Shown: positions 21,201 through 47,042, counted from the stretch's first letter. The stretch is 64,000 nt of DNA from Haplodiscus bocki (GCA_965655095.1 OZ296649.1:133734001-133798000), one strand, 5' to 3'. The notes: generated from the sequence alone by a model not told the origin. Numbers and translations: made by a program.

Positions 21201-24200
21201 TGTCGCTAAGGTTTCATGACAAATTCTATATTTGCTTGAACCAATACATTTGTCGACTTGGTCTCTCGTTACTAGAGAAATTTCCATCAAGTCTTCCGAT
21301 ACTGCCAGGTATTCTGCTTCTACATTCCACTTAACTGCCATGTCTTCGTCCCTTTGGGGTTGAGGTAGCACAATCGCTTGGTACACTGTGAATGCTGTTT
21401 GTCGTGATGCAAATGGGATTGCCATTGTCATCAAAAGACCATTATCAAGGGTAAATACGTCCAATAGTGGGCGTGACTCATAATATGCCAAAGTTCCTGT
21501 TTTGGAATGGCCAATGTAAGTCTGTTATCGGACTTCTCTCATGAGTCGTCAACCACTTTCAAGATTTTTCCAAGGATTTCTTAGGTAATAGGGACAAAGG
21601 AACATATTTTGAAAGTAGAGAGGGATTAGCGTTCATTATACTCATCTGGAACGCAAACAGCTGCTCGATAGGCTTTGACGTTGCAATAGATTAGGGAAAG
21701 CAAAGAAGAAACTGTATCCAAACTGAATTTCATCTGTTGTCTTGTTTAAAGTAGTTGATCACAATTGCGCATGTCGTGGATATTCTCCCGGAATTGCTTC
21801 TCGATCTTTTGCCAGTTCTCTTTTTGAGTTTCGATAAATTGACTTTGGATTTCGTGAAGGAGGGCTAAATCCTAAAACTTTTGAGACACGGAAAAATTTC
21901 ATCGGTTGTGTTCGCAAGTTGTCGCCAATAGCTATGGCGTATTCTCGATATTTTTAGCATTTGTTCGGGCTTTTTCTTGACATGATCCAAAAATACCCAA
22001 GATACCACAATCATCCGAGGCACCAAACATGATGCCGGTTCCGAATAATCCTACGGCACCTGCTACTGCTAAAGGTACTGCTTTTTTAGACAGTTGTTTT
22101 TTCTTGATTACGGTGACCTTCAAGAAGGAGGATACTTCGTGTTTTATTTTGTTCAGGTCTTCGTCGGCGAACGAGATATGCTTTTTTGTTTCTTTTAGAA
22201 GCCAATCTACTTTGAAGTCGTTTTCACTTGTGTTTGTGAATTTAAAATAATATCTATGGGTCGGCATTGGCCATATGCTGCAATTCTGTTGCTACTTTGT
22301 CTAGTTGGATGTCAACTTTTGGGTAGAGGAGTAAGAATTGGACATTTACAAAATTTTCTGCCAAAAGTAATTTTGTCCCGTCGTGGGAAAATACCCCTCG
22401 CTCGAGACTACCTTTGCCATCTGCTACCGCTATTATTAAAAACAGAAAAAGTAGAGTCATTGTGGAAGGCTTTGGGATTTTATTTGGCTGATTTTCTTTT
22501 GAAGACGTAGTGGAAGTTGGATTAATTACTAGCTTTTTCTTTTGGCAGTACAGTCAAAATACAAATGATTTGAGGGGTAGACTTGCACTTTAAGTTCGTT
22601 TAAAGTTCGTCTTCTAGATAGTTCAACAGTTCTTCTAGTTTGTCTTTGAACGTTGATTCTAAATTCAATGAATTGTAGTGTTTGCTGAGGGTATCATAGA
22701 GTCTGTTGAATTCAATTGGGTCAATGTCAACTTCCTTATAGTAGGGCTCATTGTGGGGTTTGAAGACTCTCATTCGAATGAGGGGAGAACATCCACATTT
22801 ACTTTCTGTCGCTAAGGTTTCATGACAAATTCTATATTTGCTTGAACCAATACATTTGTCGACTTGGTCTCTCGTTACTAGAGAAATTTCCATCAAGTCT
22901 TCCGATACTGCCAGGTATTCTGCTTCTACATTCCACTTAACTGCCATGTCTTCGTCCCTTTGGGGTTGAGGTAGCACAATCGCTTGGTACACTGTGAATG
23001 CTGTTTGTCGTGATGCAAATGGGATTGCCATTGTCATCAAAAGACCATTATCAAGGGTAAATACGTCCAATAGTGGGCGTGACTCATAATATGCCAAAGT
23101 TCCTGTTTTGGAATGGCCAATGTAAGTCTGTTATCGGACTTCTCTCATGAGTCGTCAACCACTTTCAAGATTTTTCCAAGGATTTCTTAGGTAATAGGGA
23201 CAAAGGAACATATTTTGAAAGTAGAGAGGGATTAGCGTTCATTATACTCATCTGGAACGCAAACAGCTGCTCGATAGGCTTTGACGTTGCAATAGATTAG
23301 GGAAAGCAAAGAAGAAACTGTATCCAAACTGAATTTCATCTGTTGTCTTGTTTAAAGTAGTTGATCACAATTGCGCATGTCGTGGATATTCTCCCGGAAT
23401 TGCTTCTCGATCTTTTGCCAGTTCTCTTTTTGAGTTTCGATAAATTGACTTTGGATTTCGTGAAGGAGGGCTAAATCCTAAAACTTTTGAGACACGGAAA
23501 AATTTCATCGGTTGTGTTCGCAAGTTGTCGCCAATAGCTATGGCGTATTCTCGATATTTTTAGCATTTGTTCGGGCTTTTTCTTGACATGATCCAAAAAT
23601 ACCCAAGATACCACAATCATCCGATGCACCAAACATGATGCCGGTTCCGAATAATCCAACGCCGTCTGCTACTGCTAAAGGTACTGTTCTTTTAGACAGT
23701 TGTTTTTTCTTGATTTCAGTGACCTTCAAGAAGGAGGATACTTCGTGTTTTATTTTGTTCAGGTCTTCGTCGGCGAACGAGATTTGCTTTTTTGTTTCTT
23801 TTAGAAGACAATCTACTTTGAAGTCGTTTTCACTTGTGTCTGTGAAATTAAGATAACATCTATAGGTCGGCAATCGCCACATGCTGCAATTCTGTTGCTA
23901 CTTTGTCCAGTTGGATGTCAACTTTTGGCTAGGGGAGTAAGAATTGGACATTTACAAAATTTTCTGCCAAAAGTATTTTTGTCCCTTCGTGGGAAAATAC
24001 TCCTCGCTCAAGACTACCTTTGTCATCTGCTACCGCTGTTGTTAAAAACAGAAAAAGTAGAGTCATCGTGGAAGGCTTTGGGGTTTTAATTTGGCTGATT
24101 TTCTTTTGAAGACGTAGTGGAAGTTGGATTAACTACTAGCTTTTTCTTTTTGCAGTACAGTTAAAATACAAATGATTTGGGGGGTATACTTGCACTTTAA

Positions 24201-24206
24201 GTTCGT

Positions 24207-24536
24207 TCAAAGTTCGTCTTCTAGATAGTCCAACAGTTCTTCTAGTTTCTCTTTGAACGTTGATTCTAACTTCAATGATTTGTTGTGTTTTCCCAGGGTA
24301 TCATAGAGTCTGTTGAATTCAATTGGGTCACTGTCAATTTCCATATAATATGGCTCAATGTGGGGTTTGAAGACTCTCATTCGAATGAGGGGACAACATC
24401 CAGATTGTTGTAGTTGAATAATAATGATATAAAATGGGTCCTCCGTTTCGGGTGGTGTCCATTGTAGAAGAAATTTGAATTCTACTTGAATTGGGGTAAG
24501 TTGCCAATGAACTGTAAGTGTTTTTTCAATATTGAT
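24207..24536 (-). pseudogene. Accessory ORF-X upstream of env (unknown function); donor of the C-terminal ~60 codons of the chimeric ORF in every unit; second copy ~28706..29035
   Basis: Manual translation gives 110 open codons: INIEKTLTVHWQLTPIQVEFKFLLQWTPPETEDPFYIIIIQLQQSGCCPLIRMRVFKPH...LEELLDYLEDEL*. Bounded upstream by an in-frame stop; no ATG at the 5' end. Confidence 0.55.
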
Positions 24537-25567
24537 TCACTACTAGGGCTTCAAAGTATTTCTTTAATTCAATTTTTAAGGGTTTAATTGAATTTCAAAC
24601 TTCTCTAGTCAGTCTTAGCTGACTTTTTGCCATGCAAAAAACTTTGAAATTTCGGATATTTCGTTTTTTAATATGAGAATGAGTAACTAACTGCTGGCGA
24701 AAAAGTTTGAATGAATGTCGCAATAATAAGGGAAGTGTAATTCTCTGGATACACATTCGGTGTTCTGGCGGATATTAAAGTTGATGTGGGCGAGACTGCG
24801 ACGGATAGTAAAATTTGTTGGTACGGTTATTTAAATGGGTCTGGACGGATATTAACAGGTTGTTTGAGCTGTCATGGTTTTTGCTGGTTAAGGGAATGCA
24901 ATCAGCCTACATTTGTCAGTGTTCCAGGGGAACTAATTAAGCTGTTTCATCAATTTGATTTCCCATGAATTGAACTAACGCATCCAATTCTGTTGAACTA
25001 GTGGAGGTATATAAACGGAGCAGTTCATAAAGGCTCATGAATTTCTTGCTCGTTGAAGAAATTTCTAAGATCGCTTTTTGTTCGTTGGTCATGTTTGGAT
25101 CTCTGATGAGAAATCGCAAGGGTGCTCAACAGAAGCATTTTTGCCATTGAATTCTGTGTATTTCAAGTAGAAAATCTTTTCCAGGTGGCTTCTACTGTAA
25201 ATTCATATCGAATTTTTCCCTTTTTTGCGGTTTTTCTTTTCGATTTGTCGGTTCGGACACTGAATATGTATTTTGCAGAGGTGTTTTTATGCACGGGCCG
25301 ATAGAAGTGAAGTGGCTATTGTTTTTTAACAGATTTTAAGGGCAGTGGCTTTATAGCTGTTGTTTGTGATTTTTTACTAGTTGCTTTCTCAGTAATGTGA
25401 TGGAAATAGTCTTTTACGCGAAACTGAGCATAATTTGGCTTGTTTGCTCAATTTATGAGCTCGTTGTCGCCTTGTTTAGGGTGACATGTTTTGGGGGCGG
25501 TCGTTTTCCGCCTCTATGTTACATGATTTTCAGATTTCTTTTTCAGAGCATGTGATGTGCTCGTGTG

Positions 25568-46811: not shown

Positions 46812-46833
46812 TGTTCTCCATTAGTTGTATTCC

Positions 46834-46853
46834 TCACGTCTTCCTTGTCACCA
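46834..46853 (-). promoter_or_regulatory. Primer-binding site, tRNA-Trp-like
   Basis: Minus strand ...TGTACA|TGGTGAC-AAGGAA-GACGTGA directly after a CA end. The canonical tRNA-Trp PBS is TGGTGAC-CCC-GACGTGA. Confidence 0.65.
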
Positions 46854-47042
46854 TGTACAATTTCTGGAGTTTTTTATTTGAGTTCACGTTTCAGTCCTTT
46901 ACTAGTTGTAAGACTTGGAATATTTTCTAGTGGCTATCTTCAGTGCGGGGTGTGAGGAAAAATCTCTTGAAAAATTGGAGAAATTATTCCAAGATTCGAA
47001 TCAACTGTTCCATCGCTATCAAGAATTCTCTGTGTCTTTACA
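46854..47042 (-). repeat. Putative short 5' LTR (~190 bp)
   Basis: TGTAA...TACA termini on the minus strand, AATAAA about 20 nt before the 3' end, abuts the PBS. The partner LTR is not in the window, so the outer boundary is uncertain (47042 or 47055). Confidence 0.5.

Follow-up and report, generated by a model that had tools for sequence, protein, structure and literature searches.

The 64,000-nucleotide stretch of Haplodiscus bocki DNA analyzed here (GCA_965655095.1 OZ296649.1:133734001-133798000, hereafter the window) holds what its sequence indicates to be one decayed, internally amplified provirus of an F-envelope Ty3/gypsy family. Members of this family end their Pol protein with a TARG1-type macrodomain and carry an antisense JmjC gene in a variable cassette between pol and env; from the copies compared, the macrodomain appears fixed in Pol and JmjC the most persistent gene of the cassette. 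We favor, with somewhat better than even confidence, a reading in which these two domains served to remove restrictive host marks, likely ADP-ribose for the macrodomain and probably repressive histone methylation for JmjC.

Gene order in natural copies of the family

An initial annotation of the window had proposed a large enveloped Metaviridae-like ancestor, reconstructed in part from a block at 24.4-26.8 kb that now lies within a tandem array. Natural copies bounded by long terminal repeats (LTRs) bear this out. The genome has 53 matches to the unique block, including four full-length ones at other sites, while searches for JmjC-type sequences gave at least 133 (with the JmjC of one copy as query) and at least 115. 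We fetched 29 loci over a range of identities, 9 picked by the block and 20 by JmjC. The antisense JmjC was flanked by env in 29/29 and, on its other side, by the macrodomain, integrase or reverse transcriptase (RT) in 28/29; a macrodomain was present in 26/29. Sixteen of the 29 had an LTR pair of at least 350 bp (75-97% identical, with one tandem dimer at 99.8%). Copies are typically about 12.5 kb long, and the conserved order persists down to 26-36% JmjC identity. The macrodomain and JmjC 3′ part on the pol side of the window, and the JmjC 5′ part in a long unit of the array, have the same best-matching copy, which is also tied for best match to the transmembrane (TM) and orfA frames of the block.

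As the 24.4-26.8 kb block is absent beside pol in the window and confined to two array units, one might suppose that an unrelated element has inserted itself into the array there. We consider the chance of this negligible: natural copies have the block between the same pol and env, which refutes the idea, and the last 308 bp of its two copies match 39366-39665 on the pol side at 8% divergence, equal to the age of the LTRs.

As a separate observation, a block of short frames (L014:1480-9840) replaces the pol side of the copy at C1 115.5 Mb, to the right of that copy; it has what we take to be a Polinton/adintovirus look, with integrase-like and ATPase-like frames.

An antisense JmjC frame under purifying selection

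The JmjC gene is split in the window between two places:

39366-39868, plus strand: 3′ part of the JmjC gene with H-x-D, K and distal H, on the pol side of the junction
26129-26779 (second copy about 30629-31279), plus strand: 5′ two-thirds of the JmjC gene, with TTTCAG, resembling a splice acceptor, 8 nt before the ATG

Selection was examined on nucleotide alignments made without protein guidance, 13 copies being compared with one reference. Over the JmjC interval, the antisense frame has a ratio of non-synonymous to synonymous differences (pN/pS) of 0.36-0.48 with 0.3-0.9% stops, compared to 0.44-1.40 and 3-7% for the other five frames. These alignments indicate that the antisense frame is under purifying selection.

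The H-x-D/E...H triad and the 2-oxoglutarate (2OG)-binding Lys of JmjC 2OG/Fe(II) oxygenases are present. The ligands are kept in the decayed H-x-D copies (H 22/28, D 24/28, K 26/28, H 24/27) and in 38 stop-free rows from sister families (H 37/38, E 35/38, K 38/38, H 34/38), and are conserved across families at about 20% identity. In the window family, the fold is supported by a Pfam JmjC match (24.2 bits), by Atlas (0.93) and by remote relatives with Pfam JmjC scores of 24.6-31.1 bits. The AlphaFold model of an H-x-E homologue from a sister family (predicted local distance difference test, pLDDT, 83) has the double-stranded beta-helix fold. In Foldseek, KDM7/PHF2/PHF8 lead the matches to this model, and the top 15 ranks listed are all KDM7-type; the alignments to KDM7/KDM2 take in the C-terminal helices and cover about 255 residues, vs. 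about 190 for JMJD5 and TYW5. The JmjC proteins of all families have a lysine/arginine-rich tail. They are 10-14% identical to any solved JmjC; PDB sequence searches with them returned nothing meaningful, and Pfam JmjC matched 0/38 of the sister rows.

A pyrimidine-CAG motif resembling a splice acceptor precedes the JmjC start in 13/22 copies, compared to a background of 7%, with the TAG form in several others, which suggests that a spliced RNA is made from the antisense strand. Downstream of JmjC, poly(A) hexamers do not keep a common position from one subfamily to another. Remote relatives of these proteins, likewise stand-alone and basic-tailed, occur in other datasets (P0182, P0187, P0189, P0195, P0199, P0204, P0209, P0210, P0219, P0221); P0199 has no close copy in this genome, and scans of viral and metagenome contigs gave no relatives. 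The JmjC proteins form an unnamed stand-alone family with remote relatives elsewhere.

A TARG1-type macrodomain at the end of Pol

40413-40836, minus strand: TARG1/OARD1-type macrodomain, C-terminal domain of Pol after a linker of about 225 aa; frame broken in the window copy

The macrodomain had been annotated as a gene of its own. In one copy, integrase, linker and macrodomain form a single frame of 978 aa and, since the three share one frame, the macrodomain is the C-terminal end of Pol. It matches human TARG1/OARD1 (PDB 4j5r) by sequence with an E value of 7e-21. Its pN/pS, from the same protein-blind alignments, is 0.27-0.45. Four residues of the TARG1 site are kept in most copies (H 29/36, S 33/36, K 36/39, D 33/39); we take these to be active-site residues of TARG1, with Lys and Asp catalytic. 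A small frame directly after the macrodomain was considered as a further gene and rejected, its pN/pS of 0.73-1.12 giving no coding signal.

A second, distant gypsy family in this genome (L081-L082, L083-L084; G000:C3:37.41-37.43 Mb; C8:23.85-23.87 Mb; also P0024) has a TARG1-type macrodomain between protease and RT. It is abundant and young (at least 38 matches at 89-95%). Its fusion protein is gB-like (E 1e-31 to Pfam Monjiviricetes_fusion); env is followed by a gene with a TRAF/MATH domain (E 5e-19), and the family also has an acidic frame on the antisense strand. The TARG1-type domain in this second family suggests a repeated benefit and, together with the gB-like env and the TRAF/MATH gene, that such captures recur in this genome.

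Different cassettes on closely similar backbones

To place the copies, we built an RT tree by a quick search with 41 of 43 copies (two were too short) and 35 database proteins, no named references being included. A branch with 100% support sets the 22 H-x-D copies apart, and their grouping with the sister families has 99% support in the Shimodaira-Hasegawa-like approximate likelihood ratio test (SH-aLRT). Sister backbones that are 93-95% identical on both sides enclose intervals of 2.5-3.4 kb that cannot be aligned, except for one 105-bp patch in one pair. JmjC is present in 6/11 sister loci, and identity between the JmjC proteins of sister cassettes is 28% in one pair and 43% in another; other sister cassettes have unrelated antisense frames in its place. 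Subfamilies of the window family share 80-94% identity across most flanking windows; only in the TM segment does it fall to 54-59%. Point mutation cannot yield unalignable cassettes on backbones that are 93-95% identical; the simple reading is that modules are exchanged between relatives. Whole cassettes that differ on such backbones offer a natural series of variants for the study of the host-transposon arms race.

Other cassettes and related families were also noted. One sister family has three tandem paralogous sense frames of about 100 aa directly after pol (L073:7772-9133), with 27-31% mutual identity. A JmjC-less cassette (L063:7445-8742, L070:636-1823) has several short antisense frames, possibly exons, with no Pfam match; the His/His/Cys-Asp spacing in one of them is, we presume, like that of an integrase zinc-binding domain. 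Young related families with LTRs of 1.8-2.4 kb and no env match (L085:6581-8611, L085:8721-9239, L139, L088:910-2230) have three antisense frames after pol, with one weak BED-finger match; together, we take these frames to resemble pieces derived from a hAT transposase.

Small frames and envelope

The remaining frames between pol and env, and env itself, are as follows (those on the plus strand are antisense to the element):

25523-25810 (second copy 30022-30309), plus strand: TM, single-pass membrane micro-protein with a CC motif
24937-25320 (second copy 29439-29819), minus strand: orfA, small sense frame, paralogue of orfX
24595-24830 (second copy about 29125-29329), minus strand: orfB, small sense frame with a coding signal only in close and mid copies
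24177-24560 (second copy 28676-29059), minus strand: orfX, small sense frame immediately before env
22798-24066, minus strand: 5′ part of env in long unit 1, broken; signal peptide, basic cleavage site, fusion peptide and heptad region, F-type (class I)

In the same alignments, pN/pS was 0.27-0.30 for env, 0.40-0.77 for orfA, 0.44-0.58 for orfX, 0.47-0.93 for orfB and 0.68-0.75, with depletion of stops, for TM; two spacers appear non-coding. The paralogy of orfA and orfX has an HHalign probability of 98%, and neither gave a profile match to the small sense frames of sister families. One segment of the TM frame is strongly hydrophobic, and the frame has a weak match to antisense TM frames at the same position in two sister families. 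Pfam gave nothing useful for orfA, orfB, orfX, TM or the cassette frames of sister families.

The anatomy of F-envelope errantiviruses in the sense of PMC13524379 is present: env follows pol and encodes a signal peptide, a furin-type site, a fusion peptide and a TM segment. Atlas placed env at 0.96-0.95 with clusters containing Baculo_F (12-23% of members) and Fusion_gly (82%), with a recognition score of 1775, under the tool's mark of 2300; PDB sequence searches with env gave no meaningful match.

These data also bear on the possibility that the accessory block has no function and is carried along as filler, whether non-coding or captured passively. The weaker signals of TM, orfB and orfX (pN/pS 0.44-0.93) and the lack of a coding signal in the frame after the macrodomain would fit such a reading; among the sources listed, no RNA was seen either, though this is uninformative about expression. 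Opposed to it are the constraint on JmjC, the macrodomain and orfA in their own frames, the conservation of the JmjC ligands at about 20% identity, and the fact that position and strand do not vary within a clade supported at 99% (SH-aLRT). We think it very improbable that filler accounts for the block, and for JmjC and the macrodomain this reading is already largely refuted.

Possible roles of the two enzymes

If the two domains do erase host marks, the macrodomain would travel with integrase in the particle and the pre-integration complex, and would remove, during reverse transcription, integration and repair, the ADP-ribose that sensing or repair enzymes of the host attach to proteins or DNA ends. 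An internal, spliced antisense transcript would make both the TM protein and the JmjC enzyme. The basic tail of the latter might direct nuclear entry, and removal of repressive methyl marks could loosen silencing chromatin on proviruses. With the genes in antisense orientation, the cassette's splice and poly(A) signals may be prevented from cutting the genomic RNA. Cassettes would be swapped by template switching when relatives are packaged together, which is what an arms race between host and element would lead one to expect.

A more ambitious version, which we put a little short of an even chance, is that of a still-spreading 'complex' enveloped Ty3/gypsy clade in an animal lineage, with a fixed integrase-linked ADP-ribose eraser and a hypervariable, recombining cassette. 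At the core of the latter would be a JmjC histone demethylase specific to these viruses, encoded antisense and made from a spliced RNA, which would free proviruses of heterochromatin. If true, an LTR virus would here possess a chromatin anti-silencing enzyme of its own, along with counter-defence modules that can be exchanged.

We find less probable, though worth serious consideration, an explanation that accepts the same element and genes and makes JmjC a protein or RNA hydroxylase (JMJD5/TYW5/FIH-like), with the macrodomain serving integration repair and the cassette tuning replication or tissue tropism. The fold scores of the sister model are in its favor, since they tie demethylases with hydroxylases. 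On the other hand, the longer KDM7/KDM2 alignments, the KDM7-type matches that fill the 15 top ranks listed and the lysine/arginine-rich tail found in every family argue against it, and cassette swapping suits conflict better than housekeeping.

Besides this tie, several points count against the removal of host marks by the two domains, in particular by JmjC. The protein modeled is the H-x-E sister homologue and not the JmjC of the window family, for which the AlphaFold model (13 rows) is poor (pLDDT 35). The two are weakly related by sequence (HHalign E 0.002, probability 14%; BLASTP E 2e-4), and the window-family proteins score 24.2 and 22.3 bits with Pfam JmjC vs. a cut-off of 24. These are stand-alone frames of 270-370 aa, in which Pfam found no PHD, CXXC or other histone reader. 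The pN/pS pairs share a single reference and are hence not independent, and the 38 sister rows had been picked as stop-free. Lastly, young elements without JmjC are likewise spreading, which makes JmjC dispensable.

Deletion and amplification in the window provirus

The element was initially bounded at 22600-47042. Its true extent is larger: one end is at 47380, and the other, with the 3′ LTR and the second copy of the target-site duplication, lies about 12.3 kb before base 1 of the window:

47381-47385, plus strand: 5-bp target-site duplication, CCCTG; second copy beside the 3′ LTR
46854-47380, minus strand: 5′ LTR with TG...CA ends
46843-46853, minus strand: primer-binding site, starting TGGTGAC, a start common to six other copies
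45740-46811, minus strand: gag, broken
45198-45611, minus strand: protease, two stops
43317-44602, minus strand: RT and RNase H, broken, FMDD motif
41503-42784, minus strand: integrase, broken
about 12.27-11.76 kb before window base 1 (G000:C2:133721729-133722245): partner 3′ LTR, paired with the 5′ LTR

Both LTRs are flanked by an identical CCCTG, and the 59.6-kb span is thus a single insertion. The LTRs are 89% identical by BLAST, with a Kimura two-parameter (K2P) distance of 0.070 over 511 sites. As in Ty3/gypsy (Metaviridae) elements, there is an LTR pair, a target-site duplication and a primer-binding site, and gag is followed by protease, RT, RNase H and integrase in that order (Pfam RVT_1, RT_RNaseH, Integrase_H2C2, rve). 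The primer-binding site looks tRNA-Trp-like when judged against the table in supplement 1 of PMC13524379. The gag of a natural copy (L020) has a CCHC knuckle; in the window copy the gag, protease, RT, integrase and macrodomain frames are all disrupted.

Between pol and the 3′ LTR, the provirus consists of repeats:

39366-39369: deletion junction with TCGT microhomology, joining the JmjC region to env at codon ~27
1-39364, minus strand: internal tandem array of 1.6-kb units, each the 3′ part of orfX and about 1.2 kb of the 5′ part of env (self-comparison)
24407-26788: unique block of long unit 1, the retained accessory region (self-comparison)
28906-31287: unique block of long unit 2, 0.5% from that of unit 1

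The initial annotation saw JmjC fused to env at 39366 through TCGT. The join and its microhomology hold at the level of DNA, with TCGT found both in env at codon ~26-28 (23987-23990 in the long unit) and on the JmjC side at 26472-26475; a fusion protein is not formed, as the genes lie on opposite strands. Microhomology of at least 4 bp occurs at 2.2% of random point pairs by chance. Sequence is indeed missing beside pol and survives in the array, amounting to 2,485 bp, slightly less than the 2.6 kb first given. The long units do hold the rest of JmjC and further frames (JmjC 5′ part, TM, orfA, orfB and the 5′ part of orfX, in the two unique blocks). An intact env start is not specific to them, however, since the start is present in every 1.6-kb unit, and env is disrupted by stops or frame changes in 24/24 units.

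The array comprises 24 full units, 0.1-8.3% apart, and additionally three 1.04-kb units; it extends about 10.8 kb beyond window base 1, ending in the 3′ part of env and the second LTR. Duplicated segments are up to 8% apart, similar to the LTR divergence (7%), while some units differ by only 0.1-2%, suggesting that amplification began early, with local turnover of the units. We propose that internal duplications started around the time of insertion, that a microhomology deletion took 2.5 kb beside pol, and that unequal exchange would have expanded a satellite of dead env fragments. The locus would then be a satellite array that arose within a single provirus. In contigs of four public runs, possibly of the assembly's own sample, depth over the array is 10-80x that of the unique side, and the array therefore looks real; a contig bridging the 39366 junction was not found among the 32 of 328 pieces listed.

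With env and orfX repeated about 25 times, and other copies having seeded tandem arrays too, one could imagine that the host retains the genes or the array for its own use, e.g. as a source of small RNAs directed at the family, or of an enzyme that it has domesticated. We hold this to be improbable: env is broken in all 24 units, and the selection observed is between subfamilies, whose LTR-bounded copies are dispersed, rather than at any single locus.

A higher-order repeat is visible at 8381-14784, where a two-unit block is duplicated (0.9% and 0.1% apart). Elsewhere in the family, L010 (G000:C1:120.045-120.054 Mb) has a 1.53-kb array of the macrodomain region with at least 5 units, and further tandem repeats occur in L039-L040, L055-L056 and L023-L024 (9.5-kb and 5.9-kb duplications and a head-to-tail dimer). 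Outside the provirus, minus-strand exons of a host gene with Rap/Ran-GAP domains (Pfam E 3e-14 and 5e-4) lie just past the 5′ LTR at 48526-51487, and palindromic segments at 51524-51776 (255 bp, 82% self-complementary) and 57274-58080 (808 bp, 91%) are possibly miniature inverted-repeat transposable elements (MITEs) or foldback elements.

Comparison with known systems

In the literature searched, which did not extend to subscription papers, Repbase reports or bioRxiv supplements, we found no report of an env-carrying Ty3/gypsy element with either a JmjC or a TARG1-type domain, nor of the present combination of domains and cassette exchange; precedents exist singly. The closest backbone is that of the 'ancient errantiviruses' with F-type env (PMC13524379), which in the parts consulted share the Ty3/gypsy gag-pol (PR-RT-RH-IN), LTRs, tRNA primer site and a third gene, F-type in character, whose product combines a signal peptide with a basic cleavage site, a fusion peptide and a TM segment. 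The accessory interval of 3-5 kb between pol and env, coding on both strands, and the macrodomain ending Pol set the present elements apart; the terms macro, antisense, accessory and JmjC are absent from the main text of that paper. The Tor elements of Oikopleura are also Ty3/gypsy elements with an env gene, and in some of them env is transcribed from an internal promoter; unlike here, no accessory enzymes are mentioned in the sections seen (PMC4402516).

Enzymatic cargo has partial parallels. Teleost epsilon-like endogenous retroviruses have macro domain or CNPase genes (reviewed in PMC4977317), and so share a macro domain as cargo of an enveloped LTR element, but are true Retroviridae, with no antisense JmjC mentioned in the portion available. 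An orchid Gypsy element with an AlkB N6-methyladenosine (m6A) demethylase (PMC9289625) likewise has a 2OG/Fe(II) oxygenase as an extra frame, interpreted as counter-surveillance; it differs in being a plant element, with AlkB rather than JmjC and, as far as the accessible text goes, no F env or macrodomain described. The endogenized giant viruses of Amoebidium (10.1101/2024.01.08.574619) also put a reader-less, stand-alone JmjC in an integrating virus, a KDM4-like protein proposed to resist chromatin silencing; that is a giant DNA virus with a recognizable KDM4 paralogue. TET genes in fungal DNA transposons (PMC12730594), antisense frames in plant elements (PMC11963269, PMC7264820) and arguments for host-benefit roles of accessory domains (PMC6338049) are, from excerpts of these papers, further points of reference. 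Among cellular proteins, human TARG1/OARD1 (PDB 4j5r) has its active-site residues in common with the macrodomain, which is here a domain of Pol, while KDM7A, PHF8, KDM2A and JMJD5 (PDB 3pur, 2wwu, 4qwn, 3uyj) share the metal triad and, according to the model, the JmjC fold, which here comes without a PHD or CXXC reader.

The window's cassette had been likened to the counter-defence genes of complex retroviruses. The two-strand layout and the extra enzymes sustain this likeness in organization only, the gypsy-type RT_RNaseH, Integrase_H2C2 and F-type env placing the element outside Retroviridae. Since two of the extras are recognizable enzymes, it becomes directly testable which marks of an invertebrate-type host restrict retroelements, the candidates being ADP-ribosylation around integration and methylation of histones on the provirus. 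Descriptions of Ty3/gypsy elements with an env present them as simple three-gene viruses; the clade described here has the gene count and two-strand layout of a complex retrovirus.

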